In this document: positions 30,511 to 48,584 of the stretch, piece after piece
Layout of the letters: every line of letters starts with the position of its first letter
How positions within the stretch are numbered: position 1 is the first letter of the stretch
DNA from: a virus
Length of the DNA: 64,000 nucleotides
Direction: 5' to 3' (one strand)
Virus record (IMG/VR): IMGVR_UViG_3300027887_000007
Span: 46,208 to 110,207 of that record
Notes under the pieces: generated by a model
What the model saw: the letters and a program-made list of their open reading frames with translations, nothing else
What the model was told of the DNA's origin: nothing
Database searches by the model: none
Program-made: the position numbers and the translations under genes

Positions 30511-30686
30511 TTGAGTTTCCTCGTGGCGATGATGTACCGCCGCCTGACACTTCCCAACCACCATTCATAGATGGCGGCGAGAACCTTGCTCCTAGGACCA
30601 ACGTAGTCGATCTGAAAGATCGCAGCCCGTTGTTCCACGGCACGGGACGTGAAATCCTCAGGACCCAAGTGATACGCGAACTTCAT
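30483..30686 (-). CDS. Hypothetical protein
   Basis: 67 aa; ATGA overlap with the upstream GT gene. Confidence 0.4.
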   Translation of the reverse strand: MKFAYHLGPEDFTSRAVEQRAAIFQIDYVGPRSKVLAAIYEWWLGSVRRRYIIATRKLKCFYHSARS

Positions 30687-32677
30687 GACGGCACCTCAAG
30701 TACTCCAATGCCCATCGAGGGCCCCGGGCATCCGGGGTACTCGCCCGGGTCGAAAAACTCGTGGTGGACGAATCTCCCCTTTATTTCCTCCCACAGCCGG
30801 CTGACGAAAACCCCAAGGCTGCGGTGATAGTCGCTGTCGAGAATGTCATGGAAGACGATCAGACCGCCTGGTCGAACAGACGGACTGTAGGCCTCGAAAT
30901 CCTGTCTGACACCCTCATAGGTGTGGTCCCCGTCGATAAACAGAACGTCGACCTGTCCAGCCATTTCGGTAGCCCGGTGGATGATCGCCCAGTCGTGGCT
31001 GTCCCCCTCGATCTCGGTAACATGCTTTGCGAGCGGGGTCTCGTCGTACACCTGCCGGGGATAGTAGTGGGCGAGCTCGGTAAACCCGCCCCAGTCGAAT
31101 CTCTGGTCAACCGCATAGACCATGCCATCGTGAGGGGCGACCATCTTGGCCCAAAACATGGCGCTTCCACCCCTGTACACGCCTATCTCAAGTACCTTCT
31201 TGATCTTCCGTGCCGACAGTAGCTTCTGCAACGCCATGAGCTCGCCCGGCTTTTGGGCGCAAGGCCAGTCGATCTTGATGCCGGCGAACCCGTACCGCTC
31301 TCGGATGATCGCCCGGCAGCGCTCGAAATGCTCCGGCGTCATCCAAGAGGCGTGATTCTCTTGGTGAAAGATCGGGAAGTTTCCGATCATCAGGCTTCCG
31401 TTGTTCGGGAGCGGCCCTTCTTTCGGGACCTGAATGGTCTGGTACCCGGCGTCCTGAACCTTGAAGCAGAAGTCCATGTCCTCAAATCCGCCGGGATTGA
31501 AAGTCTCATCGAACAGACCGACCTTATCGAACATGTCCCGGCGAACGGCGGCGCAGAAAAACATGACGAACCAGCGGTCCACGTCCGATGCGTACCCCTT
31601 CAGTGGGCCGGTAACGCCGAAGCGCTTGGTCCTCAGAGGCTCAATCAGTGTCGGCAGCCATAGTCGCGCCGCTTCGGGATTGTTGTTTAGGATCACCGCA
31701 TCATCATTGATGAAGACGATGTACTCTCCACGGGAAGCCCGCACCCCCTCGTTGAGCGCTCTGGTAGCTCCGATCCTCTCTGGGAACCATACCAACCTGA
31801 ATGGATCCCCCAATGTCTGGGCGAAGTAGCGAGCATCCTCCTCCGCTCCATTTGCCACAATGACCACCTCACCGTTGGTCAGATCGGTGGCTGCAACGAT
31901 GCTCGACACGCAGGCCTGCAGATTCCTCGCCGAGCAAGTAGGGATGACTATCGAGAACTCGGCAGTCTTCTCCTTGAATCCGTACCGCTCGCGGAGGATG
32001 TTGAAGTTCCGGGCGAAGGTCTCCTGCCACTTCTCGGCCACCCCTTCGAGGGAATGCACTGTACCTTCGGCCGCATGGTAGATCGGGAACTCCCCCGACC
32101 AGAACTTCGGGTTAATGTTCCCATCCAGCTTATCGTGGGGAACCTGAACGATGCCGTACCCCTTCTGCTTCGCCTTCATGGCGAAGTCCATGTCTTCCCC
32201 GGCGCCCGGGTTGAAGCACTCGTCCAGCAGGCCGATCTCGTAGAACAGGGTGTGCCGGATCATGGCACAGAAGAAGAGGATGAACTCGCAGTTGGTTGCC
32301 GGGCTGCGCGTCTTGAGTGGTCCGGTGATGGCCACTTTCGGGTTCGAGAAAGGCGCCATCATCATGTCGATCCACTGGTTTTTGGACTGCGGGAGCAGGA
32401 TTACGTCGTCGTTCAGCAGGACGATGTACTCTCCGCGGCAGACCTTGATCCCCTCGTTGAGGGCCCGTGTGGCCCCGATCGGCTTGTCATAGTGAAGGTA
32501 CTCTACCGGAACGCCGACCTCGGTAAGTCCCTTGGCGAACCGGCGCGTTTCTTCCCCGGCGCCGTTTGCGACCACAACAATCTCGGTGTCAGTGAGATTG
32601 GTGTACTCAGCAATAGACGCCAGACATTGTTTCAACAGAGATAGGGTACACGTCGGTATGACGATGCTTAACTTCAT
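30683..32677 (-). CDS. Tandem GT2-GT2 glycosyltransferase fused to a class I SAM-dependent methyltransferase (Methyltransf_24-like)
   Basis: Two copies of SIVIPT...VVANG...GATRALNEG...GEYIVxxNDD...GLxDExFNPG.xEDMDF; C-terminal VLEIGVYRGGS, DVLFIDGDHTYEGV, PGGLIVFHD. Confidence 0.9.
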   Translation of the reverse strand: MKLSIVIPTCTLSLLKQCLASIAEYTNLTDTEIVVVANGAGEETRRFAKGLTEVGVPVEYLHYDKPIGATRALNEGIKVCRGEYIVLLNDDVILLPQSKNQWIDMMMAPFSNPKVAITGPLKTRSPATNCEFILFFCAMIRHTLFYEIGLLDECFNPGAGEDMDFAMKAKQKGYGIVQVPHDKLDGNINPKFWSGEFPIYHAAEGTVHSLEGVAEKWQETFARNFNILRERYGFKEKTAEFSIVIPTCSARNLQACVSSIVAATDLTNGEVVIVANGAEEDARYFAQTLGDPFRLVWFPERIGATRALNEGVRASRGEYIVFINDDAVILNNNPEAARLWLPTLIEPLRTKRFGVTGPLKGYASDVDRWFVMFFCAAVRRDMFDKVGLFDETFNPGGFEDMDFCFKVQDAGYQTIQVPKEGPLPNNGSLMIGNFPIFHQENHASWMTPEHFERCRAIIRERYGFAGIKIDWPCAQKPGELMALQKLLSARKIKKVLEIGVYRGGSAMFWAKMVAPHDGMVYAVDQRFDWGGFTELAHYYPRQVYDETPLAKHVTEIEGDSHDWAIIHRATEMAGQVDVLFIDGDHTYEGVRQDFEAYSPSVRPGGLIVFHDILDSDYHRSLGVFVSRLWEEIKGRFVHHEFFDPGEYPGCPGPSMGIGVLEVPS

Positions 32678-33947
32678 GCTTGGCAGGCTCCCGTTCCATC
32701 TTCTTTTCGTAGTCTAACAGACACCCGCGCCGCGGCTTGTTCTCCTTCAGCCAAGTGCGGAAGGCGACCTCTAGGATCCTAAATTCCGCCCGCGACAACC
32801 AGAGAGTATCTACCGTCAGCCCTCCGGTCCCATCCTTGCCAACCTGATAGTACTGATCGAAGTCGCGTGACATCCAAGTGATCCCATACTTCTCCGGGTT
32901 GTCCCACACGGGGGTCCCGGGGTAGGGGACGAAATTGGAGACGAAGTACTGGTCCGGATCGGCGTCGACGATGAACTTCCTCGTCTCCTCGAGCGTATCG
33001 GCGGTCTCGCCCGGGAATCCGATGACGAAGAAGGCCCGGGAGACGATCCCGTATTTCTTCGCCCATTCGATGACGTTGTAGTTGTCCTTGATCTTCGCTC
33101 CCTTGATCATCCGGTCAAGGATGTAGGGCGACCCGGATTCGATGCCCCATGCAACCTGTCGGCATCCGGCGTCGGCCAGCCGGCGGTAGACTTCTTCCGT
33201 ATCCGGCCCGGCCTTCCCAAGGCAGCGGAACGTGATACCAAGCGGCCCGATCAAGTCCAATATCGGAAAAAGTCGCTTCTTGTTCAGGGTGAAGATGTCG
33301 TCTTGGAAGTTGAACGCCCGGATCCCGTACTCGTCGATAACCCGCTTGATCATGTCGCGGACTTGCTCGGGCGTGGCGATTTTCTTGTTTCCGTCCAGCT
33401 TGTGCATCATGTCGAGCCCGCAGAATGCACAGTGGTAGGGACATCCGCGGGCTGTGAGCAGAGGGACCGACTTCTCCCCGTCGACAACCCGGTGGTAGGA
33501 GAAGACGTCCACGAGGTCGAACGCGGGGTAGATACCAGCGTCAACCTTCCCGTCCGACTTGATGATCCTGTGAAACTGCTTCCCGGTCGCAAGCTCAGCC
33601 ATTGGGGTTTCGCCGGCCCCGATCACTACATGATCGGCAAACAGGTATCCCTCCGGCATGGCCGATGGATTAGCTCCCCCGACAACGATCTTGGCCTTGG
33701 GTGAAACCCTGCGGATCTCCCGACACAAAGGCTCGACAAAGTTCATCGAGGTGCAATAGCTGGTGATCCCGTAGAGGTCGGCCTTCCCGATCGTAAAGCT
33801 GGTCAAACCAGACATGTCGTTCACACGCACATCGACATCCGGAACTGCCTTGCGAAGATGCGCGGCAATCATGAGAAGACCCAGAGGCGGGTCCAGCCTG
33901 TCATCTGTGGAGTTTGGGTGCGGCGGATGGATCAGCTCAACCTTCAT
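32607..33947 (-). CDS. Cobalamin-binding radical SAM enzyme (class B methyltransferase-like)
   Basis: PPLGLLMIAAHL and IVVGGANPS B12-binding domain; RGCPYHCAFC (CxxxCxxC); FQDDIF; GIESGS; FVIGFPGET; PYPGTP. Confidence 0.92.
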   Translation of the reverse strand: MKVELIHPPHPNSTDDRLDPPLGLLMIAAHLRKAVPDVDVRVNDMSGLTSFTIGKADLYGITSYCTSMNFVEPLCREIRRVSPKAKIVVGGANPSAMPEGYLFADHVVIGAGETPMAELATGKQFHRIIKSDGKVDAGIYPAFDLVDVFSYHRVVDGEKSVPLLTARGCPYHCAFCGLDMMHKLDGNKKIATPEQVRDMIKRVIDEYGIRAFNFQDDIFTLNKKRLFPILDLIGPLGITFRCLGKAGPDTEEVYRRLADAGCRQVAWGIESGSPYILDRMIKGAKIKDNYNVIEWAKKYGIVSRAFFVIGFPGETADTLEETRKFIVDADPDQYFVSNFVPYPGTPVWDNPEKYGITWMSRDFDQYYQVGKDGTGGLTVDTLWLSRAEFRILEVAFRTWLKENKPRRGCLLDYEKKMEREPAKHEVKHRHTDVYPISVETMSGVYC

Positions 33948-34417
33948 TACCCCCCCTTTGCGACCGTGTCGATCGCGGTGGCTACGGTTTCGGCGTCAAC
34001 CCAACAGTCCTCACGGTACTGTGCGTTGTCCCACCATTCCCAGATATTAGGGCGGATGTACCTGACTCCTTTGAGCAGGTTTACGTTGGCGGGATGACCA
34101 AACACGTAGGGGTCTTGCTGACCGAATACCACAACTCCGCGTTTTCCCTCGTAGGTTGCGAAGTGCTGGAAAAAGTTGTCGACCGACGCCCATGTCGCGC
34201 ATTCCTGCAGGGCTTTCGCAATGAGCTTCAGGCGCAGCCCCCAGCAGAATCCTTGGACGTTAGGAAACCGGTACTCGCCGGCCGCGCCGACCTGAATGAC
34301 ATGGTACCCCATGGCGACCAACAGTGAGATCACCGCCTCCCAGTGCGGGTAGTCCTTCGGGTTTTTCGCCCCGCTGCGGAGCGTCCTCGAGAACGGCGAG
34401 ACCATGATCTTCTGCAT
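33947..34417 (-). CDS. GT9 (heptosyltransferase-like, GT-B) C-terminal domain protein
   Basis: KDYPHW...VIQVG...VDNFFQHFA...GVVVFG..DP. Confidence 0.7.
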   Translation of the reverse strand: MQKIMVSPFSRTLRSGAKNPKDYPHWEAVISLLVAMGYHVIQVGAAGEYRFPNVQGFCWGLRLKLIAKALQECATWASVDNFFQHFATYEGKRGVVVFGQQDPYVFGHPANVNLLKGVRYIRPNIWEWWDNAQYREDCWVDAETVATAIDTVAKGG

Positions 34418-35463
34418 CAGGCAACTCCGTACAGCCGCTTGAACCCTTCAGCGATCGGGATCCTGAGATTCTTGTCACCACAGTACTTGTAGACGTCATA
34501 GTTCTCAAGGTTCCAAATCATCTGGCCTTCGGCAATCGAGATTTCCACGAAGTCCTTCGGTTCGTCCTCGAAGACCTCCGGGTAGCAGTCGGCCATGACG
34601 ATCTTCTTCCCGGTGGCTTTCTCGCGGACCAGCGGCCAGACCTCGTTTTTGAAGATGATGTGGTCGCCGAGGCCGCAGTTCAAGACGATCGGGACAATTT
34701 CAGTGGGATTGACGCCCCAGCGGAGCATACGCTCGACGAACTTCCGCTCGTCCGATGCCCAGTGGGACCCGTCCGTGTAGGACCGGATTCCGCCCTCCGG
34801 GTTGCGAAGGTGCCAAGTCTTGCAGACTGGCTGTATGAGGATCTTCCAGCCGGCGAGCTTCATCTCGTAGGTGAAGATAGTCTCCTCCCGATGGCCGACC
34901 GGACTCAGGTCGGTCGGGTAGTTCGGGGCAGCTTCCTTGCGAAACACAAACGAGCTGTAGAGGTGGTCAACCTCGTACGGCTGCTCGACCGTACTAGGGA
35001 ACCACTGCTCGTTCATGCCGATGTAGATGTCCTCGATCTTGTTCGAGGCGATCTTCGGCTTCCTCGGGATGTAGTTGAGTGGGTCGATGATCAGCCCACC
35101 GACAGCCCCGACCTCCGGCCTCGGGCGAATCACCCGCAGGAGGCACTCGAGGACGTTCGGCTCGGGCGCCTGGTCGTCGTCCAAACGCCAGATGAAGTCA
35201 GTCTTCGCCATGCCGAGGGCCCGCTGGTGGTTGGCGACTTGGCCGATCCGGGCCCCGAAGCTAACCTCCCACTCGATGCCCTTGATGCTCAGCAGTGAGA
35301 ATAGCCCCTTGTAAAGGCCGTTCTCGCGTAGGTCCCTCTGCTCTCCGTCATCGAAGATGATGAGTTTCTTCGGAAGGATGGTCTGGTTGCAGACCGCGGA
35401 GATCATGAGCGGAAGGGTGGTGAAGTACCGGTCCTTCGTGGAAACGGTTGCGGTTACTTGCAT
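34417..35463 (-). CDS. GT2 glycosyltransferase with a C-terminal GT9-like N-domain
   Basis: STKDR, IIFDDG, WRLDDD (DxD), HREET; C-terminal LNCGLGDHII...YPEVF. Confidence 0.8.
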   Translation of the reverse strand: MQVTATVSTKDRYFTTLPLMISAVCNQTILPKKLIIFDDGEQRDLRENGLYKGLFSLLSIKGIEWEVSFGARIGQVANHQRALGMAKTDFIWRLDDDQAPEPNVLECLLRVIRPRPEVGAVGGLIIDPLNYIPRKPKIASNKIEDIYIGMNEQWFPSTVEQPYEVDHLYSSFVFRKEAAPNYPTDLSPVGHREETIFTYEMKLAGWKILIQPVCKTWHLRNPEGGIRSYTDGSHWASDERKFVERMLRWGVNPTEIVPIVLNCGLGDHIIFKNEVWPLVREKATGKKIVMADCYPEVFEDEPKDFVEISIAEGQMIWNLENYDVYKYCGDKNLRIPIAEGFKRLYGVA

Positions 35464-35699
35464 CAGACAGGCACCCCCAGCTCCGTGAGGATCGCCTCGA
35501 TTCCGCCGACCTCCTTCAGGAGCTCAGCCCGCCTGTCCTGAAGCTCTTTGGGGTTGACCTTCTGCCGCTCCGGCATCTGGAGTTCTTCCCCGCTCTCCGG
35601 GTCGAATCGCTTGAAGACCAGCTCGTAGCCCTCCGGTCCGAACTGAATCTTCGCAAGTCCCTTCTCACGCACTCGGTTGAACCGTTTGATGTCGATCAT
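35463..35699 (-). CDS. Hypothetical protein
   Basis: 78 aa; KRFDPESGEE plus coiled coil; RBS GGAG. Confidence 0.65.
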   Translation of the reverse strand: MIDIKRFNRVREKGLAKIQFGPEGYELVFKRFDPESGEELQMPERQKVNPKELQDRRAELLKEVGGIEAILTELGVPV

Positions 35700-36168
35700 A
35701 AAATCTCCCTCCCGGTATCGCTATCCACCGACCGACATTTGCCGGCCAGATCCAATCGTTCTGCACTTGCGCCATATCCCACTTCTTCTTCTCTGCCTCA
35801 ATCTCGTTCTTGATTGACTCTACACTGACGCAGTCACCAGCGGGAAGCTCCCTCACGAAGCGGCAGGATGCGGAAACGCCCCCTTGAACGTAGATCGCCG
35901 GAAACGATCTGCAGACGAGCGGGCGCTTGTTGTAGACCAAGCAGGCTCCATCGCCGTAGTTCGGGCAAGGCCTAGTCACCATTTGGTACGCGGTAGTCAC
36001 AACAGGAAAGCCGACACCGAAGAGAGGTTTTACGCTTTCTGGGGGAAACTGCAGTGTTTCGTCCGGGCTGAGGTAGAGTCCAAACTCCCATCCGAACCTC
36101 GGCTCGACAAGATTCTGCTCCCGGCAGCAATCCCCGCAGTTGGTACACTTGAAGTCAACGGCTACCAT
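35665..36168 (-). CDS. YkgJ/FliB-like CxxCxxCC Fe-S/Zn protein
   Basis: FKCTNCGDCC...CP...CLVYNKRPLVCRSFP...C. Confidence 0.85.
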   Translation of the reverse strand: MVAVDFKCTNCGDCCREQNLVEPRFGWEFGLYLSPDETLQFPPESVKPLFGVGFPVVTTAYQMVTRPCPNYGDGACLVYNKRPLVCRSFPAIYVQGGVSASCRFVRELPAGDCVSVESIKNEIEAEKKKWDMAQVQNDWIWPANVGRWIAIPGGRFYDRHQTVQPSA

Positions 36169-39100
36169 TCAACGCCCCGATCACTGATTCTACAGATTCT
36201 TTCAGTGAGGCGTCCATCTGTTTTACAGCGTTGACCAAAATGAAGACCATCGGGGCGTAGTCGAAGATCAGTACGTCAGTCGGTTCTCCCTCGGCGTAGA
36301 GCTGGGCGTTCTCTATGCGCCAGATCGTCCGCGGGGCGACCGGCTCTACTTCCTGCGCGATGATGCCGACGCGGTCGATGTTGTCGTATCCCGGCTCCCA
36401 AAGCTGGTTGTACTTGAAAAATACGGGGTTGATCTTCTCTACAACCTCGATCCCGTCGGTAAACCGCTCGATCTCACGCTTCAGGCGGATATCGGACGAC
36501 TTTTTGAACCCCGACAGACCACTGTAACCGGAGAACCCAGAACCAGAGTAGCCGCTGTCACCCGAGTAGCCTGACCCGGACGAGTACCCAGAGTAGCCCG
36601 AGTGACCGCAGTACCCGGACATTCCGGAGTAGCCGCTGTAGCCGCTCTGCGGTGAGGAGTAGCCGCTCCGTCCTGAGACCCCGGAAATCCCCGAGTGACC
36701 GCAGTACCCGGATTTGCCTGGGAAGCCTGAGTACCCGCTATCCGTCGAGGAGTACCCGGATGTACCAGAGAAACCGGAATAGCCTGAGTAACCTGACGTT
36801 CCAAGACCAGCGCTTCCATACCCGGAGTAGGAGCTGTAGCCAGAGTACCCCGACACGGCGCTGTAGCCCGAGATCCCCGAATACCCTGATTCCCCGCTGT
36901 AGCCGGAGTAGCCAGACGCCTGACCTCCACCACCACCGCCAGATGTGACGAACCAACTTCTGGGAGATGGCGGGAGGAGACGAGGCGGGTCTTGCTGACT
37001 GCCGAAGTACGACTGGTACAGGCGCCAGACCTCATCGGCTGACAGCGCCCGATTCCAGAACTGTAGGTCTGATGCTCGGCACTCGTTCCACTCGAATGAG
37101 CCATAGTCTCTCGGGAGCCCGACACCGTAGCTCCAAGCTCTTTCACTGGCAAACGCAGTAGCCGAGCCGTGCGTCTGGGAATCCCAAAGCTTGCCGTCCA
37201 CGTAGACGTCTAGGTACCCATTGTCAGACGCGCTCCTGACCACCCAAGTAACTAGGACCCACCTGTTTGTCGGACACGGAGTACCGCCACAGACCATCGT
37301 GTGATCTTCTGTGACATACCCAAAGAAGTAGCCTTCGGTTGAAATTCCGACCACGGCATTTGTGTAGCCACCGGCCGGACCATCAAGAACATCGAACAAT
37401 GAGTTCCATTGAGTGGTCCCAAGATTCAGCACCCAGGCCGATACCGTGTACGCCCCATCCACCGCAATCGGAGTCCGTACGGTGTGAACCGGGGTATAGA
37501 AGTAGTACTGATTGGTGTAGCTGAAGGTGCCACCGAGCTGCGGCCCACGGGCGCCAACCGACCAGTAATCCGGTCCAGCCGGAGCCACGAAAATCTCCGG
37601 ACCTGCTACGTTGTGGAGATAGTTGCCAGATCCCTCGTTGAGAAGCAACCACACCCCAAGCCCTTGGTTGAGCGGGTGGTCTGGATTAGCTTTCCATCCA
37701 GCCCCGACCGGCTTGGTCGGAGGTTCTGATGGTATTGACAGCTTACGGGTGACCGCTTGACTGCCGGATGAAACGAACCACTTGCGCGGCGACGACGGGA
37801 GAAGGCGCGGATTGTCAGGTGTCCCCCACGGGTGCCGCTGTAGGTACAGCATCTCGTCGATGGACAAGATACGGTTCCAGATGGCGGTTTGAATGACCGG
37901 AGCGCTGTAATTGCCAACTCCGTTTGCCTTCCCACCTGCGATGTTGAACATGTCCGCGTCGTAGTCGTTGCGATAGTAGATCGGACCCAGTCCAGTCCCT
38001 ATATTCGCACTACGTCCAACGGCATAGATGTTGACATCCCCAGCGGCATTCCATGTTTGAAATGCAACAAACCCCATGCGTTGCTCAAACTCAGTCATGG
38101 TGAGGTCGGGACCATCCAGAGTGTGGTTGTTAGCCCCCCCATTTGAGTAGTAATCGCATGTCAGCCCATGAAGCGAACCTGTCCAACAGACCAGGCCGTA
38201 TGACGCCGATAGGCTCCCGGCGCCCCTAAATCCGCCAATCGCCACGTTCTGCTCGACAGATCCATAAAACACAAACTCCGTCATGCTCGTTCCTTCTGGA
38301 ACGTCCGAGAGCTGTCGCATCGACGTAGTATGTGGCCCGAAGCCCGTCGATTGTACGGCGTGGATCCCGCATCCTCTCCGCGTCTGGGCCCACCTAACAT
38401 TCATCCCGGTGTCAGGAGCATTAGGAATGCCGTAAAACAAAGTCATCCCAGTGCAATACTCCTTCAGTGACGCCCCGACTCCCTCCAAGAGCGGGTACCA
38501 CAACGTCATTCCATCGTGAACTGGGTGTTCCCTGTTTACCTGAAATTCGCTTCCAACCGGCTTTGTGAGCGTTTCATCGGGGATGATGAATGCCCTAGTA
38601 AGCCCGGAGTCTCCTCCTCCTGCCGAGTATCCGGACGACCCACTCAGTCCAGATCCACCCGAGTACCCAGATGGCGCCGTGTCGCCCGAATACCCAGAAA
38701 TGCCGGAGTACCCCGAGAACCCGCTGTCTCCGAACCCACGGTACCCGGAGAATCCAGAAGGCGCAGCGCCCGAGTAACCAGAAGACCCGTACCCCGAGTA
38801 CCCGGATGCTCCAGAGCATCCCTCCATACCGAACTGGAACACCCAGTTCTGCTCTGGACCTTCCTGAGCGGGGGCGAACCAAACCTCCGGCTGCGCTGGG
38901 ACAAAACGAGGATTTTCTGGGGTGCCAAACGGGTGAGAGTAGAGCTCTAGCCACTCCTCCGAGCTCAGTTCCCTGTCCCAGATTTGAATCCAGTAGATGT
39001 TAGCGCCAACCGTTCTGGTTAGCTGGGCTGCTGAGGCGTCGTTGCCAGCGATGACAAACCTACCCGTGCCACCTGTGTCGTAGTCTATCGTCCCGGCTGT

Positions 39101-39745
39101 CTCTGCGGTGGACTTGACGTTCCTGCCGTTAACCCAGAGACGAACAGACCCGCCATCACCCCATGAACCGCCGACTTGCGTTGGAACCGTAAGATCGCCA
39201 CAGTCGTAGGCGTCAGTTTCGTAGATACCAGCACAGTTGACGGCGAAGCTGACGTAGTTCTGCCCAGCGTACGCTGGATTCACGTTTAGGCAGTACGACG
39301 TGTATGGGAACGCGCCATTGTTGTAGGTCTTATCGAGGATCTTTCCAAGCCAGATGTCGCTCGTGGTCCTGCGGAAGTAAGTGGCGACCGAGATGCCTTT
39401 AGTTGGCTCGCACCAGTTTCCACGCTCGATCCATGTCGCCTGATCCTCGACGGTCGTTCCGGGGTATGCCCGACCCCCACCACGCTCACCAGTCCAGCGC
39501 GGTACAGCCCTAGCCCCCGCACCTCCGATTGTATTGAGCGGGAGCCTGTTGATGAGGCCAATGCCCTCCCCCGCTCCTTCCGTGAAAAGGAAGACCTCTC
39601 TCAGGCCACGATTTAGCGGGTGATCCCAGTTGACACCAACAGCAGAGTGCGGCTTGAAGGTATAGGCCTGAGGAGCCCGCATCCTGACCGGAACCACCGC
39701 GGTGAGAGGCCAGTAGAACGGCAGCAGGTTTGGCCCGAATCCCAT
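36155..39745 (-). CDS. Fibre/adhesin: three LamG-like domains, two SGYSG tracts and a C-terminal intramolecular chaperone (Peptidase S74-like)
   Basis: Three HPL/V..G...L.EG.G to WxRxLSxxE..L...P.G...PR modules; (SGY/F)n tracts; SSDIRLKREI. Confidence 0.8.
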   Translation of the reverse strand: MGFGPNLLPFYWPLTAVVPVRMRAPQAYTFKPHSAVGVNWDHPLNRGLREVFLFTEGAGEGIGLINRLPLNTIGGAGARAVPRWTGERGGGRAYPGTTVEDQATWIERGNWCEPTKGISVATYFRRTTSDIWLGKILDKTYNNGAFPYTSYCLNVNPAYAGQNYVSFAVNCAGIYETDAYDCGDLTVPTQVGGSWGDGGSVRLWVNGRNVKSTAETAGTIDYDTGGTGRFVIAGNDASAAQLTRTVGANIYWIQIWDRELSSEEWLELYSHPFGTPENPRFVPAQPEVWFAPAQEGPEQNWVFQFGMEGCSGASGYSGYGSSGYSGAAPSGFSGYRGFGDSGFSGYSGISGYSGDTAPSGYSGGSGLSGSSGYSAGGGDSGLTRAFIIPDETLTKPVGSEFQVNREHPVHDGMTLWYPLLEGVGASLKEYCTGMTLFYGIPNAPDTGMNVRWAQTRRGCGIHAVQSTGFGPHTTSMRQLSDVPEGTSMTEFVFYGSVEQNVAIGGFRGAGSLSASYGLVCWTGSLHGLTCDYYSNGGANNHTLDGPDLTMTEFEQRMGFVAFQTWNAAGDVNIYAVGRSANIGTGLGPIYYRNDYDADMFNIAGGKANGVGNYSAPVIQTAIWNRILSIDEMLYLQRHPWGTPDNPRLLPSSPRKWFVSSGSQAVTRKLSIPSEPPTKPVGAGWKANPDHPLNQGLGVWLLLNEGSGNYLHNVAGPEIFVAPAGPDYWSVGARGPQLGGTFSYTNQYYFYTPVHTVRTPIAVDGAYTVSAWVLNLGTTQWNSLFDVLDGPAGGYTNAVVGISTEGYFFGYVTEDHTMVCGGTPCPTNRWVLVTWVVRSASDNGYLDVYVDGKLWDSQTHGSATAFASERAWSYGVGLPRDYGSFEWNECRASDLQFWNRALSADEVWRLYQSYFGSQQDPPRLLPPSPRSWFVTSGGGGGGQASGYSGYSGESGYSGISGYSAVSGYSGYSSYSGYGSAGLGTSGYSGYSGFSGTSGYSSTDSGYSGFPGKSGYCGHSGISGVSGRSGYSSPQSGYSGYSGMSGYCGHSGYSGYSSGSGYSGDSGYSGSGFSGYSGLSGFKKSSDIRLKREIERFTDGIEVVEKINPVFFKYNQLWEPGYDNIDRVGIIAQEVEPVAPRTIWRIENAQLYAEGEPTDVLIFDYAPMVFILVNAVKQMDASLKESVESVIGALNGSR

Positions 39746-41000: not shown

Positions 41001-41297
41001 CTAGACAGCGAACGTGTTGACCGCGTTGGTGACGGCAGTGATGATCTGTCCGTCGGTACAACCAGTCGGATTGGCGAGTACGTTCGCATCGGCGATGACG
41101 GCCCACATGATCTTGTCCGTTGCGGATTCCGTATTGATCAGAGCATCCTTCGCCCATGTGAGCCGGGCAGCGTGATTTGCGGTCCCCGGATCCTCCGCGA
41201 GGATGTCGATCGAACACTTCGCTACCGCCGCGATCGTCCGACTCCGAAGCGTCTGGTTGGTGACTTTCGTGTTGTAGGCCTCAAGCAGCGTTGCCAT
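41001..41297 (-). CDS. Small helical fibre-associated protein
   Basis: 98 aa; EDPGTANHAARLTWA...TDGQIITAV. Confidence 0.65.
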   Translation of the reverse strand: MATLLEAYNTKVTNQTLRSRTIAAVAKCSIDILAEDPGTANHAARLTWAKDALINTESATDKIMWAVIADANVLANPTGCTDGQIITAVTNAVNTFAV

Positions 41298-41964
41298 TTT
41301 GTTTCTCCTCTAGCGCCTCATCTCTGAGGGCGTCTTTGTAAGTGTAGTCGTATGACCCGACGTGGATCATGAGCTTAGACAGATCGTGATCCACGTAGAG
41401 CTTGAAACCGGAGTCCATGGCTCGTTGAGAAAAGTAGTAGTCCTGATAGACGTACCGCCGATTCTGCTCGCTGTACCCCATGAGGAACCACGGGTGAGCC
41501 ATCTTCTCGTACACCTCCCGGGCCACCAGCGTTAACCCCTGCGGGAGCAACTTGACCTCCTCAAGCCCGGTTGACGTCTCCTTCGTGATAATCCTTTTGT
41601 CCTTCCCGGCCGCGGTGAACCTCTGACGCTTTCCTTTGTTGGTCGAGTAGTTCGCCCCAACGATCGGAAGCCGATGCCGGGCGAGACGGTGTATGGCGTC
41701 TGGAGGGAACCCCATGTCATCCTCGACGCTGCAAAAGTGCGTCCACCTCACCTGCTTGTCCTCCAAGTACTTTTCGACCAGGCGCTCGTAGTTCTCCGCA
41801 ATCCCGCTTCCTTCTGTCCCGTCGGGGACGAAGTACTGGGTGTCGCAATCCTCAAACACCCTAACGTGCGAGAAGTACATCGCCATTCTGGCGAGGCACA
41901 TCGCATACTTCAGCCGGCACAGACCAGTCGACGGCGTCAAAACGGCAACGGCGAAATCTCCCAT
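41281..41964 (-). CDS. GT-A fold (GT2-like) glycosyltransferase
   Basis: THFCSVEDDMGFP, IVGANY, GLTLVAREVYE..PWF, QDYYF...GFKLYVDHDLS..HVG; similar to 23479-24120. Confidence 0.75.
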   Translation of the reverse strand: MGDFAVAVLTPSTGLCRLKYAMCLARMAMYFSHVRVFEDCDTQYFVPDGTEGSGIAENYERLVEKYLEDKQVRWTHFCSVEDDMGFPPDAIHRLARHRLPIVGANYSTNKGKRQRFTAAGKDKRIITKETSTGLEEVKLLPQGLTLVAREVYEKMAHPWFLMGYSEQNRRYVYQDYYFSQRAMDSGFKLYVDHDLSKLMIHVGSYDYTYKDALRDEALEEKQNGNAA

Positions 41965-41972
41965 ATTCCACC

Positions 41973-42995
41973 TCAAAGCTGAGCGATCGAAGCGAGGAAC
42001 CGTTCTTTGTCTCCCGTAGACTCGAACTCCTCGGATAGACGCTTCAGCTCGAGTATCTTACCGTTCAACTCCTTGATAGCGTTAGTGAGAAGAAAGACCA
42101 GTGGCGCTACGTCGAACAGGATGATCTCGGTCTCCTCGCCCTCTTCGATAAGCTTGCCGGTGACCTTCCGGATGGTGTACGGAGCTAGAGCCTCGATCTC
42201 CTGACCGACGATCCCAACTTGGAGTACGTCGTCGTTCTTGGTCTCCCACAGGCCGTTCCACTTGAACGTGATCGGGTTGATCTTCCTCAGAACCTCTAGG
42301 CCGTCCTTGAATGCGCGGATGTCGCGCTTGAGTCGAATATCGGACGATGCCCCCGAGTATCCCGATCGGCCCGAATAGCCAGAAACTCCTGAAAATCCGC
42401 TTCGGCCCGAATAGCCAGAATAGCCTGAAGTCCCGCAGTACCCCGAAACTCCCGAATAGCCCGAGTAGCCTGAGCTGGAGTATCCCGAGATGCCAGAGTA
42501 TCCCGAGTAGCCTGAGCTGGAGTAACCCGACACCCCGCTGTACCCAGAAAAGCCTGACGTCCCGCAATAGCCGCTGACGCCTGAGAATCCGCTGTAGCCC
42601 GAGCTGGAGTAGCCACTTGTCCCCGAGAAACCAGATCCGCCACTACCGCCCGAGTACCCACTTTCGCCCGAGAAGCCGCTGACCCCGCTAAACCCCGAAA
42701 CCGCCGAGTACCCCGAGATCCCCGAATAACCCGAAGTTCCAGAAAATCCAGAAGTGGCCGCACCTGAGATCCCAGAGTACCCCGAGTATCCTGACGGACC
42801 AGAGTAGCCACTGTCGGTCGAACCCGGTCCGCTATAGCCTGATGGGCCACTGTAGCCGGAATCGCCCCCGCCGCCAGAGTAGCCCGAAATCCCTGAGTAG
42901 CCAGATGTCGACGAGTAGCCCGAATAGCCTGAAACCCCGGAGTACCCGGAGATCCCAGAATAACCACTCATCGACGCAATCTTGTCCCAGCCCAT
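41973..42995 (-). CDS. SGYSG collagen-like fibre protein with a C-terminal S74-like chaperone
   Basis: About 205 aa of (Gly-X-Ser)n followed by SSDIRLKRDI...GIVGQEIE. Confidence 0.85.
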   Translation of the reverse strand: MGWDKIASMSGYSGISGYSGVSGYSGYSSTSGYSGISGYSGGGGDSGYSGPSGYSGPGSTDSGYSGPSGYSGYSGISGAATSGFSGTSGYSGISGYSAVSGFSGVSGFSGESGYSGGSGGSGFSGTSGYSSSGYSGFSGVSGYCGTSGFSGYSGVSGYSSSGYSGYSGISGYSSSGYSGYSGVSGYCGTSGYSGYSGRSGFSGVSGYSGRSGYSGASSDIRLKRDIRAFKDGLEVLRKINPITFKWNGLWETKNDDVLQVGIVGQEIEALAPYTIRKVTGKLIEEGEETEIILFDVAPLVFLLTNAIKELNGKILELKRLSEEFESTGDKERFLASIAQL

Positions 42996-42996
42996 A

Positions 42997-43473
42997 TCAA
43001 CTCAGAAGGTAGACGTCACAGGTGTCAGTGTCTAGGTACAGGTCTCCAGCGACGGCGCCTGGGATCGACCCCGGAGCTCCAGATCCGGTGAACCACTGCG
43101 TTCCCCGAGCGCCCGAGTAGGCGCTGATCCCAGAGTACCCACTGTAGCCCGAGGTCCCCGGACTGGAGTAACCAGAAATCCCACTGTAGCCCGAGGGCGA
43201 GGAGTAGCCTGAGATTCCCGAATAGCCCGACGTCCCAGAGTATCCCGACGATGACGAGTACCCAGAAATCCCTGAGAATCCAGACAGGCTAGAGTATCCC
43301 GAAATCCCCGAATACCCAGAAGGCGACGAATAGCCACTAATTCCCGAGTAGCCCGAACTGGACGAGTATCCGCTGATCCCCGAATAGCCCGATACGCCGG
43401 AGTAGCCGGAGTAACCCGATCGGCCCGAGTAGCCTGAGTATCCGCTGATGTTGCTCTGCTTTGTCCAGCTCAT
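42997..43473 (-). CDS. SGYSG collagen-like fibre protein (short)
   Basis: MSWTKQSNI-(SGx)n-RGTQWFTGSGAP...GDLYLDTDTCDVYLLS. Confidence 0.85.
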   Translation of the reverse strand: MSWTKQSNISGYSGYSGRSGYSGYSGVSGYSGISGYSSSSGYSGISGYSSPSGYSGISGYSSLSGFSGISGYSSSSGYSGTSGYSGISGYSSPSGYSGISGYSSPGTSGYSGYSGISAYSGARGTQWFTGSGAPGSIPGAVAGDLYLDTDTCDVYLLS

Positions 43474-46145
43474 GCGTACTGGCCTCCGGTCGCTGACGTT
43501 CCAGACGAGTCTCCTGGGAAGTAGTTAGCGCCGCCGCCGTTTGTGTTGATCACGCCGTTCAGGGTTACTTGGTACCGGGAACCGGTTGCTGACCCGCTGT
43601 AGGTTGATGATGTGTCCTGAACCACTCCGGCCAAAGATGCGTATGCAAAGGCCGTAAACGCTGGAGTCCCAGTAATCGTCACTGTGTGGGCGGAAGTCTT
43701 GTTCACCCTGCCCTGGCTTGTTGCTACATGGGAGGTCGCACCGCCGCTGATTGCGTAGCTTCCTACGCAAGAGATTATCCCGTTGAATCCAGCATCGAGG
43801 TGGTAGACGGAGCAAGCGCCGAAATCGATGTTCTGGAACTTTATTGATGCAGCTTGAGCCCTTAAACCACCAAGCCCACCAGAGTTCGTGATCTTGAGAT
43901 CCTTGATGAACACAGGATTTACGGTTGGGCAACCAACAACCGCTATGTTGTACGCAGCCGTTGTGTTGATCACGACGTTTGCTGGCGTTGAGGCGTTCCC
44001 CTGAACCGTTAGAGTGGCAGTTCCAAGCCCATGAAGCAGGCCGATCTGCATCCCAGCCGTGTAGGTTCCATCTCCGATTTGTACTGTGACGTTATACCCG
44101 GCGATGTCCAGCTGCATGATCGAGTCAGCAGCCTTCTGCAGAGTGAGGAACGCACCACCGGCCGAGTCTGTCAGCCCATCGTTGCTGTCGTTCCCATCGG
44201 CGCGGACGTAGTAGGTCCGGTCTGCCGTTAGCCTAGTCCTGACGTTCAGCGGGTTGCTCGCCCCGGCCCCCTGCTGGTAAACGTCTCCAGTGTTGAGATC
44301 GAGGTAGAGGTCCCCTGTGGCCTCGCCACTAATCGTGCCTGGCGCTCCATCCCCCGTGTACCAGAATGACCCCCGGACTCCGGATCCTCCCGAGTAGGCG
44401 CTGATCCCAGAATATCCAGATGGGCCGCTGTAGCCAGATGGGCCCGAGTAGCCTGAAAATCCCGAAACTCCCGAATACCCCGAAATCCCCGAGTAGCCCG
44501 ATCGCCCGGAATACCCCGAGTAGCCTGAGTCGGAACTGTAGCCGGAAATGCCCGAGTAGCCAGATCGTCCCGAATAGCCCGAGTAGCCCGAATCTGAGCT
44601 GTAGCCAGATCTTCCCGAGTAGCCAGAATATCCCGAGTCAGAACTGTAGCCGGAGATTCCCGAGTACCCCGACCGGCCAGAATAGCCCGAGTAGCCGCTG
44701 TCGGAAGAGTACCCAGAAATCCCGCTGTAGCCGGAAATTCCCGAGTAAGCCGAAATCCCTGAGTAGCCTGATCGCCCAGAATAGCCCGAGTAGCCTGAAT
44801 CTGAACTGTAGCCCGAAATCCCTGAGTAGCCCGACGTGCCAGAATATCCGGAGGGCGACGAATAGCCGGAGATCCCAGAGTACCCAGAATCAGACGAGTA
44901 GCCTGAGATGCCGCTGAACCCGGAAATCCCAGAAAATCCTGAGTAGCCCGACCGGCCCGAATACCCACTGTAGCCCGAGGCTCCTTTGGCTCCCTGCATG
45001 GCGAACACAAGCATGTCCGCCTTGTTTAGGCCCGGAGTGGCCGCTCCGGACGCCCTGCGGAATCTCAGCTTGACCGTGTAGGTCCCTGCCGGGAGCTCGG
45101 CAGTCCTGTGGGTGATCGCCCCGATTCCGTAGTCGTTCGTTCCGGAGAGGTACCGCTGGTACTCGTCGTAGTCTACCCCGTCGATCTGTATTGCGATCCC
45201 GATGGTAGATGGAGCGCCGCCGCTCTGCGTCCCGATCTCGAAACTTGCCAGCGCGGCAATCTCGACCGCCTCTTCGGTCGTGATTGTCGTCGACATCCCG
45301 CTGACGTCCTCTAGCGTAGCGGACGTAGTGCCAACGGGACTGTCCAGCTCGACGTAAGAACTCGGGAGTTTTCCAGCAACGGCATCCGCGCCGGGAAGCC
45401 CTGAGTAGCCCGAGATCCCAGAGTAGGCGCTAATGCCTGAAAACCCCGAAACGGACGAGTAACCCGAGAGTCCCGAGTAACCCGAGTATCCACTGTCTCC
45501 CGGCCCCGAAAACCCTGAGTACCCAGACTGCCCAGCTCCCGAGTATCCAGAGTACCCTGAAAACCCGGATCCGCCCCCGGGGTCTCCCTTTTCTCCGGAG
45601 TAACCAGAGTATCCCGACGTTCCGGGGCTGGAGTACCCAGAGAATCCAGACTCCCCGCCGGCCGGGCCGGAAAAGCCACTGTAACCGGATGTGCCGGGGC
45701 TGGAGAAACCAGAAGTTCCGCTGTATCCGGAGTAACCCGATGTGCCGGGGCTTGAGTAGCCAGAGAATCCCGAGACCGAGATTCCCGAGTACCCTGAGAT
45801 GCCCGAGTCTCCGCTATAGCCAGAAGTGCCGGGGCTTGAGTACCCAGAAGGGCCGCTGTAACCCGATGGGCCTGAGTATCCGGAGGTCGATTCTCCCGAG
45901 TACCCGGATGGGCCGGAGTAGCCAGAGGTCGAGACCCCCGAGTATCCGGAGTAACCAGAAATGCCGTAACCGGAGTACCCGGAGGTCCCGAAAGTGTACG
46001 GAAGGGCGTTCCAGTTCTGAATGCCGTCGCCGAGCTTGATCTTGCCAGTGTCAAGCTCAACACCAACTTCGCCTTCAGCCAGAAGTGGATTCGCTGCGGT
46101 CCACTCTGCTGCGAGGCCGCGGCGAAGCTGGATGTGGACAGCCAT
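43470..46145 (-). CDS. SGYSG collagen-like fibre protein with an Mtd_N-like N-terminus and a C-terminal beta-helix-like domain
   Basis: IQLRRG.AAEWTAANPLLAEGEVGVELDTGKIKLGDG..WNALPY; two SGx tracts; RTYYVRADGNDSNDGL...AFLTLQKA...IGDGTY. Confidence 0.85.
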   Translation of the reverse strand: MAVHIQLRRGLAAEWTAANPLLAEGEVGVELDTGKIKLGDGIQNWNALPYTFGTSGYSGYGISGYSGYSGVSTSGYSGPSGYSGESTSGYSGPSGYSGPSGYSSPGTSGYSGDSGISGYSGISVSGFSGYSSPGTSGYSGYSGTSGFSSPGTSGYSGFSGPAGGESGFSGYSSPGTSGYSGYSGEKGDPGGGSGFSGYSGYSGAGQSGYSGFSGPGDSGYSGYSGLSGYSSVSGFSGISAYSGISGYSGLPGADAVAGKLPSSYVELDSPVGTTSATLEDVSGMSTTITTEEAVEIAALASFEIGTQSGGAPSTIGIAIQIDGVDYDEYQRYLSGTNDYGIGAITHRTAELPAGTYTVKLRFRRASGAATPGLNKADMLVFAMQGAKGASGYSGYSGRSGYSGFSGISGFSGISGYSSDSGYSGISGYSSPSGYSGTSGYSGISGYSSDSGYSGYSGRSGYSGISAYSGISGYSGISGYSSDSGYSGYSGRSGYSGISGYSSDSGYSGYSGRSGYSSDSGYSGYSGRSGYSGISGYSSDSGYSGYSGRSGYSGISGYSGVSGFSGYSGPSGYSGPSGYSGISAYSGGSGVRGSFWYTGDGAPGTISGEATGDLYLDLNTGDVYQQGAGASNPLNVRTRLTADRTYYVRADGNDSNDGLTDSAGGAFLTLQKAADSIMQLDIAGYNVTVQIGDGTYTAGMQIGLLHGLGTATLTVQGNASTPANVVINTTAAYNIAVVGCPTVNPVFIKDLKITNSGGLGGLRAQAASIKFQNIDFGACSVYHLDAGFNGIISCVGSYAISGGATSHVATSQGRVNKTSAHTVTITGTPAFTAFAYASLAGVVQDTSSTYSGSATGSRYQVTLNGVINTNGGGANYFPGDSSGTSATGGQYA

Positions 46146-46279
46146 TACACGCCCCCACCATCAATCGGGTCGATTCCGCCGTAGACGGAGGTTGGAGTAC
46201 CGCCGTCGACGTCTCCAAAGTTCTCAGACGTCCCCTCGCCGCCGCCGCCACCGATGATGATGCAGCTCTCTATCTCCAT
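46145..46279 (-). CDS. Small DGG-motif protein (44 aa, not in the ORF track)
   Basis: MEIESCIIIGGGGGEGTSENFGDVDGGTPTSVYGGIDPIDGGGV*; TAATG overlap with the fibre gene. Confidence 0.6.
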   Translation of the reverse strand: MEIESCIIIGGGGGEGTSENFGDVDGGTPTSVYGGIDPIDGGGV

Positions 46280-46694: not shown

Positions 46695-48584
46695 CTATTG
46701 GATTTGACCTGTTTGCGTTGCAGATGGGCCAGTGGCATTGCTGATTTTCTCCATGGCACCCGGCAACATTCCTCCACCGCCGGCAGCTCCCGCCTGCTTC
46801 TGCCGGATGGCTTGGATGAGGATGTTGGCACCCTCTTCCTCGAGGTTTTTCTTGATCGAGTCGTACAGGCCTCCCAGATCGAGAGACTCCAGCATGTTCT
46901 TCATATCCATGTCGCCCATTCGCCGCAGGTTGAGCATGAGCGCTTGCTGCGGCATTCGGGCCGACTTGAGCAGGGATCCGGGGACCATCATGAACGTAAA
47001 CGCCTTCCAATGCTCCTCGGCAGGCGTCCCGTACGGGACCATCGTCCCGGGGTCCCAGTCGAAGTCCTCCCACGTCAATCCCTCGGACCCTAGAAGCTGC
47101 ATCCTCCGTTTCAGCGTGTAGAACTGGAAGGCGTTGGGGACCCACTGCTGGCCCATCTGTTTCATGAAGTCTTCGATGTACCGTACCTTGAGCCTGACAA
47201 GGGTCTGTTGCCCCTCCTTCAGTTGCTCCAGAGTGTCTCCTGCCGGGACGATACCCCTGCGAGAGATGCTCCCCATGTCCAGAAAACCGCTCTGGCTGTC
47301 TAGTTCCTGCTGGGCGTACAGCATCGTCTGGAAGACGAAGCTGGGCAGGACAGGCGCCGGCCCCCACGTCGGAGCCTGAATCGAAGCCGGGGAGTAGAAA
47401 ATCTTCGCATTCGGCATGTTCGGGTCGAGATTCTTCTTCACCGAAGCGCCGAAGGCGTTGTCCGGAGCAAGGAGTTGCGGGTTGACCGCCTTCTTGACCG
47501 CGTCAAGGATCCCTGCGAGGACGTTGTTCATGACATCCTGCAGCGGGATCTGGTTGCGGAACTCGGACAGTCCCGGGAACTGCCACGGGACCCGGTTCAA
47601 CCGGAGGCACTGGAACGGGAACTGACCGTGGTAGTGCGGATTTGGACCGTCGTAAAGGACAACCGGGCCGCCGAGGATCATTAGCCGGCCGCGAGGATAA
47701 AGCTTCTGGCCAGGCTGGACGGCGTATCCGTACTCCCTCTGCTGATCCCCGACCCAAACTGTTGCGTTTGACGTATTTCTCTGGCTGTCCCTGATCCAGA
47801 ACTCCCGGTAGAGAGCCATCGGTATTGCGGAGTCTCGGGCTTGGCTTGTGGTTTGGCCAAACACTCGGCGCATCTGGGGGGATAGCACCTGCCAAGCCCG
47901 TCCCCACATCCCCGTGCCGGCCTGAGACGGGCCACCAAGGTACTGCGAATACTCCTTGTCGACAGGGACTTTGTAGCCTTTGAGGGGGTACTTCTCCTTG
48001 AACCATGAGATCGGCTTGGGGGCGCGGTAGATGACTCCAAGAGACCGCTGTAGCGTATGGGACGGCCTGATCGGAATCAGGTCCATCGCGCCAAGGGCTG
48101 TCAGCTCCATCTCGCCTTCGCCGTTCTTCAGGTCTGGATTCCAGATCAAACGGCCGTAACCGATCGTGAGAGCCGCGTGGACGATGATCATGGCAAGGGT
48201 CATGTCGATGTCCTCGTTCATGAACCAAGCCCGGACCATCTTGTTGAGGACCTTCGCGTGTTCGTCGTACAGCTTGTTGTTCGCTTTGATCTCGAACGAA
48301 GGCCGGATGTCCGTGAGGTAGGAAATCAGCTGAACTAGGTTAGTCCACAGCCGGTTGGCGACCGGTGCGGCCTTGTAGCTAGGCCGGCGCTCGACCCACT
48401 GCTTCCCCATCAGGTAGTTGATGGCGCGGTCGATCTGGACTACGTCGTCGTTCCGCTCGAGGTCGTCCTTCGCCTCTTCAAAGACGGCCTCACACCACCG
48501 GCTGACCAAGAGATCGTGTGCAGTCTCGTCTAGCGGCCATTGGGTAGCGCTCGGGTCGTACGAGTACCAACCGGGTAAATCCAT
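46695..48584 (-). CDS. Portal protein
   Basis: 629 aa after the terminase; YLMGKQW, RPSFE, LYDGPNP..HGQFPF, PLQDVMN; Q/G-rich tail. Confidence 0.85.
   Translation of the reverse strand: MDLPGWYSYDPSATQWPLDETAHDLLVSRWCEAVFEEAKDDLERNDDVVQIDRAINYLMGKQWVERRPSYKAAPVANRLWTNLVQLISYLTDIRPSFEIKANNKLYDEHAKVLNKMVRAWFMNEDIDMTLAMIIVHAALTIGYGRLIWNPDLKNGEGEMELTALGAMDLIPIRPSHTLQRSLGVIYRAPKPISWFKEKYPLKGYKVPVDKEYSQYLGGPSQAGTGMWGRAWQVLSPQMRRVFGQTTSQARDSAIPMALYREFWIRDSQRNTSNATVWVGDQQREYGYAVQPGQKLYPRGRLMILGGPVVLYDGPNPHYHGQFPFQCLRLNRVPWQFPGLSEFRNQIPLQDVMNNVLAGILDAVKKAVNPQLLAPDNAFGASVKKNLDPNMPNAKIFYSPASIQAPTWGPAPVLPSFVFQTMLYAQQELDSQSGFLDMGSISRRGIVPAGDTLEQLKEGQQTLVRLKVRYIEDFMKQMGQQWVPNAFQFYTLKRRMQLLGSEGLTWEDFDWDPGTMVPYGTPAEEHWKAFTFMMVPGSLLKSARMPQQALMLNLRRMGDMDMKNMLESLDLGGLYDSIKKNLEEEGANILIQAIRQKQAGAAGGGGMLPGAMEKISNATGPSATQTGQIQ

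Follow-up and report, generated by a model that had tools for sequence, protein, structure and literature searches.

A knob domain split across gene boundaries as the probable joint between three collagen-like fibre proteins of an IMG/VR phage

The DNA analysed here (64,000 nucleotides (nt), positions 46,208 to 110,207 of IMG/VR record IMGVR_UViG_3300027887_000007; hereafter the window) comes from one contig of 110,207 bp and carries on its minus strand, 3' of the portal gene (46695-48584), three consecutive open reading frames (ORFs) for collagen-like proteins of 891, 158 and 340 amino acids (aa). Judging from sequence comparisons and structural models, these genes probably encode consecutive segments of a virion fibre that are joined non-covalently, as 1:1:1 trimers, by a small knob domain split between neighbouring polypeptides, with a branch at the 891-aa protein. 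At least two gene boundaries cut the knob immediately ahead of its last strand, and most likely the pieces plug into each other end to end. The upstream protein would end with knob strands 1-3 and form a socket, and the downstream protein, its Met removed, would begin with a Trp-containing fourth strand as the plug, its own collagen helix starting at residue 11. A trimer of the 158-aa protein would plug into the 891-aa knob and a trimer of the 340-aa protein into the 158-aa knob. The proposed completion in trans is strongly supported at the 158/340 joint, and the case for it at the 891/158 joint is weaker.

The knob family is large and is without a Pfam model. A profile of strands 1-3 matched 8,879 clusters (defined at 50% identity) at E <= 0.001 among 1.84 billion representatives, and the 150 proteins listed from these are all multi-knob fused proteins, the highest-ranked having 4-27 copies each. 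Some members of the family are giants of 4,000-6,000 aa that carry as many as 27 knobs. The original prediction had referred to a single-chain motif in which the knob is completed by a Trp strand in cis, and this motif is real: among 787 internal knobs in the 150 proteins, 716 have Trp at the expected spacing, 6-7 residues past the Tyr, followed by xxxxN[IL]xG, and the remainder mostly have Tyr there or a longer loop. The Trp at the equivalent position is invariant in the alignment of fused homologues. An AlphaFold2 model of a natural fused knob (69 aa, 21-sequence alignment) has a mean predicted local distance difference test score (pLDDT) of 86.9, and above 93 across the domain, with strands WYEG, VYLN, DVYKRA and AWTLTGN; the last is the Trp strand, which lies in the sheet at pLDDT above 90. 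The domain probably trimerises and registers the triple helix.

The motifs that the original prediction quoted from the three proteins are exact and the three ORFs are all present. The 891-aa protein contains RGSFWYTGDGAPGTISGEATGDLYLDLNTGDVY at residues 591-623, with strands WYTG, LYLD and VYQ but no fourth strand in cis; QQGAGASNPLN and a domain of about 255 aa follow, with no Trp strand. The 158-aa protein ends in RGTQWFTGSGAPGSIPGAVAGDLYLDTDTCDVYLLS and a stop codon, of which strands 1-3 and the short tail are GDLYLDTDTCDVY-LLS-stop. Each of the two downstream proteins starts with a candidate donor strand. That of the 158-aa protein agrees with the consensus of 50 donors, M-(A/P/G/S)-W-x-x-x-(G/A/S)-N-(I/L)-x-G, and that of the 340-aa protein has S-M at residues 8-9 where the consensus has N-I; the cis strands WEKIANFKG and WEKISNIKG of fused proteins resemble the latter (WDKIASMSG). 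The cut in the split form falls in the two-residue beta3/beta4 turn of the modelled fused knob, and the Tyr-to-Trp spacing of fused and split homologues is equal within one or two residues. Both observations support the proposal that the N-terminal Trp strand is the missing last strand of the preceding knob. In the whole 110-kb contig there are exactly two acceptor motifs and two donors of the collagen-linked M-x-W type, and every one of them lies within these three adjacent genes; the pattern is far beyond chance.

Split knobs are present in about 30 viral contigs as well as in Nocardia phages NBR1 and KYD2 and Corynebacterium phage EmiRose. Searching IMG/VR with the knob alignment gave 56 loci, in which the knob is either internal (with W-x-x-x-G-N-I-K-G after 6-7 residues and then more collagen) or terminal (with a stop codon next). 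A typical split gene ends Y-x-L-S-stop and its successor starts M-(small)-W. There are 57 distinct terminal knobs, 45 with a three-residue tail and 51 with Leu at +2, and in 50 cases an M-(A/P/G/S)-W gene follows directly; the Trp is residue 3 in 48 of these 50 donors, and collagen runs from residue 11. The usual layout is an initiator (acceptor only), one extender (donor plus acceptor) and a cap (donor only), so that the scheme originally proposed for the window turns out to be the dominant three-gene arrangement in other phages. The window has the same order, although its initiator is atypical in having an internal acceptor and an extra module; the terminal tail that marks split cassettes is found in the 158-aa protein but not in the 891-aa protein, whose knob is internal. 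Caps are very diverse (63-573 aa, different folds), and longer fibres have extra genes or extra in-chain knobs, as against the usual single extender.

A blastn match to the Nocardia phages lies exactly across the 158/340 boundary, with 73-77% nucleotide identity between 42975-43113 and KYD2 or NBR1 in phages that are otherwise unrelated, and knob 2, at the end of the 158-aa protein, is 57-69% identical to the Nocardia phage terminal knobs. The KYD2 trio (Orf16-18) consists of adjacent genes between the major tail protein gene and the tape-measure region. The first (97 aa) ends in GDYYIDTSTGTIYRLGD and a stop codon, the second (193 aa) starts MAWSITGNIQGPEG and ends in GDMYLDTGTGDVYLLS and a stop codon, and the third (126 aa) starts MAWDKVAVLSP. 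NBR1 has the same arrangement, and in both phages the junction reads DVYLLS-stop followed by M-A-W-D-K-V-A, nearly identical to that at the 158/340 boundary; EmiRose gp24-26 form another initiator-extender-cap trio. The cassette genes of these phages, which are annotated as hypothetical, tail fiber or minor tail proteins, have the same roles as those proposed here. Their collagen, however, is of the ordinary Gly-Pro-rich type, their initiators are short (76-97 aa) with the knob at the end, and their caps are globular, whereas the window has Gly-Tyr-Ser collagen, an 891-aa initiator with an internal knob and a beta-helix, and a cap that ends in an S74 chaperone.

The gene junctions bear on a reading in which the three ORFs are one gene broken by sequencing error or decay, or encode one protein made by frameshifting or readthrough. 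The 891/158 junction is an ATGA overlap with GGAGG 9 nt upstream of the 158-aa gene ATG, and the 158/340 junction is TGA-T-ATG, with the 340-aa gene starting 4 nt after the first base of the TGA; the three genes are consequently in different frames. Only small frame changes would be needed to join them. Against this, the boundaries recur in more than 30 independent contigs and in finished isolate genomes. In the 48 split junctions scored, the distance between the start codon and the first base of the stop ranges from -1 to +23 nt, and the relative frames are distributed 21/15/12; terminal knobs (n=57) are closed by TGA (29), TAG (20) or TAA (8), and TAGGAG-type ribosome sites are common. Since every frame and every stop codon is used, and the genes have their own starts and ribosome sites, these are separate, coupled cistrons rather than products of frameshifting or readthrough. 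Such junctions elsewhere lead us to reject recoding or gene breakage, which we regard as next to impossible for the window.

Table 1. Features of the three-gene fibre locus (positions in the window).
Feature	Position	Strand	Basis
891-aa fibre protein, "initiator"	43470..46145	-	ORF; Pfam Mtd_N 5-41 and Collagen
Mtd_N-type N-terminal domain, residues 5-41	46023..46133	-	Pfam PF18454, E 4.9e-14
Knob 1, residues 591-626, proposed open acceptor	44268..44375	-	Regular expression, alignments, AlphaFold2
C-terminal right-handed beta-helix module, residues ~635-891	43473..44243	-	Homologues and AlphaFold2
158-aa "extender": donor strand, ~110 aa Gly-Tyr-Ser collagen, terminal acceptor knob	42997..43473	-	ORF; Pfam Collagen
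Donor 1, MSWTKQSNISG, Trp at residue 3, collagen register from Gly11	43441..43473	-	Matches donor consensus
Knob 2, residues 123-158, terminal acceptor ending DVY-LLS-stop	43000..43107	-	Alignments, tree
340-aa "cap": donor strand, ~205 aa Gly-Tyr-Ser collagen, S74 intramolecular chaperone	41973..42995	-	ORF; Pfam Collagen and Peptidase_S74
Donor 2, MGWDKIASMSG	42963..42995	-	Same junction in Nocardia phages
Peptidase_S74 chaperone domain, from SDIRLK	41976..42344	-	Pfam PF13884, E 3.8e-10

All three proteins score well above the Pfam Collagen (PF01391) cut-off of 27.2 bits (102, 46.3 and 68.3 bits, in gene order), and PHROG matches of the region are to tail fibre and collagen-like minor tail families. 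The repeats are long Gly-Tyr-Ser runs with almost no Pro, an unusual composition for which the triple helix is predicted. The 891-aa protein has, in order, an Mtd_N/HylP-like N-terminus, a first Gly-Tyr-Ser collagen stretch, a globular insert, a second collagen stretch, knob 1, a linker and a beta-helix module. Its residues 3-84 match phage hyaluronidase N-termini in the PDB (6x3m, 2c3f), and the Mtd_N-type domain is likely to be the virion-attachment end. The knob does not appear to be a copy of this domain, as a look-alike pattern had first suggested: hhalign of a knob profile against the 891-aa N-terminus gave a probability of 0.1, and a Pfam scan of 21 knobs had no Mtd_N match. At the other end of the locus, Peptidase_S74 is found at residues 218-272 of the 340-aa protein (40.3 bits against a cut-off of 22), with a Ser...Lys cleavage motif, SDIRLK, at the start of the domain. 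Chaperones of the S74 family cleave themselves off after trimerisation, and by analogy this one would be expected to be cleaved at SDIRLK, leaving a bare collagen rod.

In the assembly that we propose, each piece would have a C-terminal trimerisation nucleus of its own (knob 1, knob 2 and the S74 chaperone, the last then cleaved off), which fits C-to-N zippering of the collagen helices. The new N-terminus and the upstream C-terminus would meet at the site of the former beta3/beta4 turn. Removal of Met is implied by the small residue that follows the initiator Met, and the stoichiometry is most likely fixed, with 1:1:1 trimers. Because the 891-aa chains run past the knob into the beta-helix module, the 891/158 joint would be a branched one. 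One difficulty for this assembly is that a knob minus one strand might be unstable on its own. Physical binding, the branch, Met removal and the stoichiometry are what we infer from these features, and residue counts give an estimate of roughly 200 nm for the combined collagen length, at 0.29 nm per residue.

The history of the joint can be followed to some extent in a tree of 74 knobs, which is built on few columns and leaves many forks unresolved. The split or fused state changes 6-7 times on this tree, compared to about 22 times with shuffled labels, and since the split state clusters in this way it is evidently an inherited and maintained one. Initiator and extender acceptors form distinct sequence classes. 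Knob 2 clusters with split extender knobs, whereas knob 1 is placed inside a supported clade (96/83) of fused knobs. We also note that the beta2/beta3 turn of knob 2 (DTDTCDVY) has Cys where nearly all other knobs have Gly (TGDVY); the three Cys residues of a knob 2 trimer, near the axis, may form disulfides or bind metal, or the change may be neutral.

A more complex picture is seen at the 891/158 joint. The module downstream of knob 1, which begins RTRLTADRTYYVR, has more than 614 homologues, each on a different shaft and joined at RExLTAxRTYYVR; AlphaFold2 gives it a right-handed beta-helix at pLDDT above 90, with weak Foldseek matches to pectin methylesterase and tailspike folds. This tip module of tail fibres is widely shuffled, and a fibre normally ends with it. 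Several points weigh against a joint here. None of the 120 homologues inspected of the more than 614 has a knob directly 5' of the module, and with the 891-aa knob-plus-module region as query, modules were found but never the knob, such that no relative with both came to light. There may also be a steric conflict between the three beta-helix lobes and a coaxial 158-aa trimer. An alternative is therefore that only the 158- and 340-aa proteins are joined, and that the 891-aa protein is a self-contained fibre (anchor, shaft and beta-helix tip) whose knob is the remnant of a fused fibre, the 158-aa donor acting elsewhere or being idle. The fused-type descent of knob 1, the completeness of its C-terminal module and the lack of a relative with knob, module and donor gene all fit this alternative. 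It has to contend, however, with a genome that offers no other acceptor for the 158-aa donor and with a 158-aa gene that overlaps the 891-aa stop codon and has a good ribosome site. Moreover, among about 790 internal knobs examined, knob 1 alone has neither the aromatic strand nor the N[IL]xG segment, and AlphaFold2 finds no replacement strand in cis: its three strands are modelled at pLDDT 81-84, and the linker, at about 61, has no confident fourth strand. We consider the alternative unlikely on balance, while granting it an appreciable chance. The proposal that the 891-aa protein anchors the fibre accordingly stands in part: its acceptor does lack a cis strand, but the knob is internal, a beta-helix module follows it, its descent is of the fused type and no relative shares its arrangement. 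That the 158-aa trimer still plugs into the 891-aa knob, giving a branch in which three beta-helix lobes surround the continuing collagen rod, we rate slightly better than even. The most economical history would have a once-fused fibre receive the module at its beta3/beta4 turn, so that what had been the fourth strand, together with its collagen, became the 158-aa gene.

Two further readings concern what the donor strands do. The original prediction had the 158-aa extender also binding its own acceptor and polymerising head to tail between anchor and cap, to give a pilus-like filament of variable length. Donor strands do look generic, and nothing obvious in the sequence prevents self-binding; within the locus L020 the donors of extender and cap are nearly identical (MAWSKLSNLKG and MAWSKIGNLKG), and so are those in L025. 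We found no positive evidence for such a polymer, and the near-universal translational coupling and the single extender point instead to a fixed stoichiometry. Coupling of the three genes favours equimolar output, where a polymer needs an excess of extender, and most cassettes have exactly one extender and make longer fibres with extra genes or in-chain knobs. The window donors share only 5 of 11 residues, and the initiator and extender acceptors belong to separate classes. Polymerisation thus appears very unlikely, and there is just as slim a chance of its corollary, that length is set by the extender:cap ratio and the 891-aa knob is a branch point with three enzyme-like beta-helix lobes. The other reading is that the knob and Trp sequences at gene ends serve mainly as a recombination linker for swapping fibre modules, and that the proteins are not joined through them. 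Three observations agree with this: the nucleotide identity with otherwise unrelated Nocardia phages spans the 158/340 boundary, the caps are highly varied, and the 891-aa module has evidently been grafted at this exact point. It leaves unexplained the constant position of the cut in one beta turn, the conservation of Trp3 and of a small residue 2, and a Tyr-to-Trp spacing that stays so close to that of the fused domain. As a replacement for the split-knob joint it is improbable. The two roles are compatible rather than exclusive, and the joint may also be a recombination site for distal fibre genes.

Among the cassettes of other phages there are some that depart from the usual layout. In L046 (2557-4727), L047 and L048 the knob appears complete, with a Trp segment in cis (RWSAATATWGAFRGTAA, then a stop codon), yet the overlapping next gene starts MSWTSETNIKGPAG. 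This does not fit a picture of vacant slots, and it counts against the reading that we favour in that the N-terminal motif may do more than fill such a slot. L010 (72-3120), as well as L004, L006 and L007, has one initiator acceptor followed by two donor-only genes and then a donor-plus-acceptor gene, so that donors outnumber acceptors; several caps may compete as alternatives for a single socket, or the three slots of a trimeric knob may be filled by a mixture. A rare variant of the plug is seen in L033 (2330-3129), where donor-type genes start MMAALVGNIRGPQG and MATLLGNIRGPEG with Leu replacing Trp. No code for donor/acceptor specificity was seen by eye in 15 phages.

We found no published description of a split-knob joint in the literature on strand complementation in tail fibres and on collagen-like fibre joints, and several known systems resemble it in part. 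Single-chain phage fibre and minor tail proteins of the collagen-knob-collagen type have the same knob sequence family in the same position between collagen stretches, with the difference that their fourth, Trp-containing strand is in the same chain, whereas in the window and the split cassettes the following gene supplies it. The Tal extensions of Streptococcus thermophilus phages contain tandems of a "collagen-like linker + 3-beta domain", with small three-stranded domains (PMC9437275) that may correspond to the knob. A solved precedent for completion of a beta-sheet in trans in a phage adhesion device is the crystal structure from Lactococcus phage Tuc2009, in which a hairpin of BppU completes the BppA sheet to form a composite domain (PMC4742702). 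That joint differs in its titin/Ig-like fold, its C-terminal hairpin donor and the lack of a collagen fibre, and we do not claim homology.

More distant likenesses are found outside these proteins. Subunits of chaperone-usher pili (Fim, Pap) have an N-terminal extension that supplies the strand missing in a neighbour; these pilins are monomeric Ig-like subunits and polymerise with a periplasmic chaperone and an usher. The likeness is the N-terminal donor strand for the beta fold of a neighbour, and the differences are the trimeric collagen rods, the different small fold and a number of pieces that is most likely fixed. The modelled knob is a four-stranded domain of about 40 residues, and no pilin is present in its fold-search lists, where absence from a list is not exclusion. 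The neighbours of the three-gene locus are phage structural and modification genes, no search aimed at PapD or PapC having been made. The long tail fibre of T4 is likewise built from several gene products (gp34-gp35-gp36-gp37) set end to end in fixed order, although its folds and joints are different and none of the joints is known to be a single domain split between two chains.

Small beta domains also sit at triple-helix ends in the NC1 of multiplexin collagens XV and XVIII and in the T4 fibritin foldon, but these have no sequence similarity to the knob and are not split between polypeptides. VIA aligned the knob with the multiplexin XV/XVIII trimerisation domains (Z 5.0, root-mean-square deviation (rmsd) 4.2, 54 aligned residues; Z 4.6, rmsd 3.4, 50 aligned), scores in the range of common arrangements, and Foldseek gave E above 1 for them. 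The best VIA match was the N-terminus of Geobacillus virus E2 ORF18 (Z 5.3), ahead of the multiplexin domains. Foldseek with the knob structure found nothing at E <= 0.001, its top weak match being PDB 8hif chain y4 (SGIV VP88, an inner-membrane anchor of a fish iridovirus), of which residues 355-386 match the knob profile. The same protein was the only, marginal, match in a profile search of the PDB (E 1e-3, 32 residues) and could be a chance match or a very distant relative. The matches to VP88, ORF18 and the multiplexins are too weak to name the fold.

The three genes lie in a region where fibre genes and a block of glycosyltransferase/methyltransferase genes are located between the portal gene and the major head protein gene (26221-27195). 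Modification-type genes are found among the fibre genes at 30683-36168 and 41281-41976, and include a 664-aa glycosyltransferase/methyltransferase fusion with PHROG matches to galactosyl transferase and methyltransferase. It is possible that the collagen, rich in Ser and Tyr, is modified. A second, independent fibre is represented by a 1196-aa protein (36155-39745) that has Laminin_G_3 domains, an S74 chaperone of its own and two stretches of Gly-Tyr-Ser, but lacks knob, donor and acceptor. Imperfect tandem DNA repeats (44416-44831) with periods of 9-108 bases underlie collagen stretch 2 of the 891-aa gene, and recombination between them could vary fibre length between phage lineages, a genetic route rather than one of assembly. 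No close relatives of the phage were identified, the portal giving only distant matches in the phage collection. A search with the 158-aa protein found 344 proteins at E <= 0.001, and the 120 of these that were listed, which come from many metagenomes, are rich in Gly-Tyr-Ser and similar Gly-X-Ser repeats and have neither knob nor donor; it follows that Gly-Tyr-Ser collagen and the split knob are features independent of each other that have come together here.

Multi-protein phage fibres are known, and the way in which most of their pieces are joined is not. The proposed split knob is a simple joint and recognisable from sequence: one small domain is cut at a fixed turn, and its single fold would be made up by the C-terminal end of one protein with the N-terminal end of the following one. 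Phages of actinobacteria have it, as do many uncultured phages. If confirmed, it would allow annotators to group neighbouring "hypothetical" genes as a single fibre, would account for the exchange of distal, host-recognising pieces as whole genes, and would provide a natural plug-and-socket for building trimeric collagen rods.

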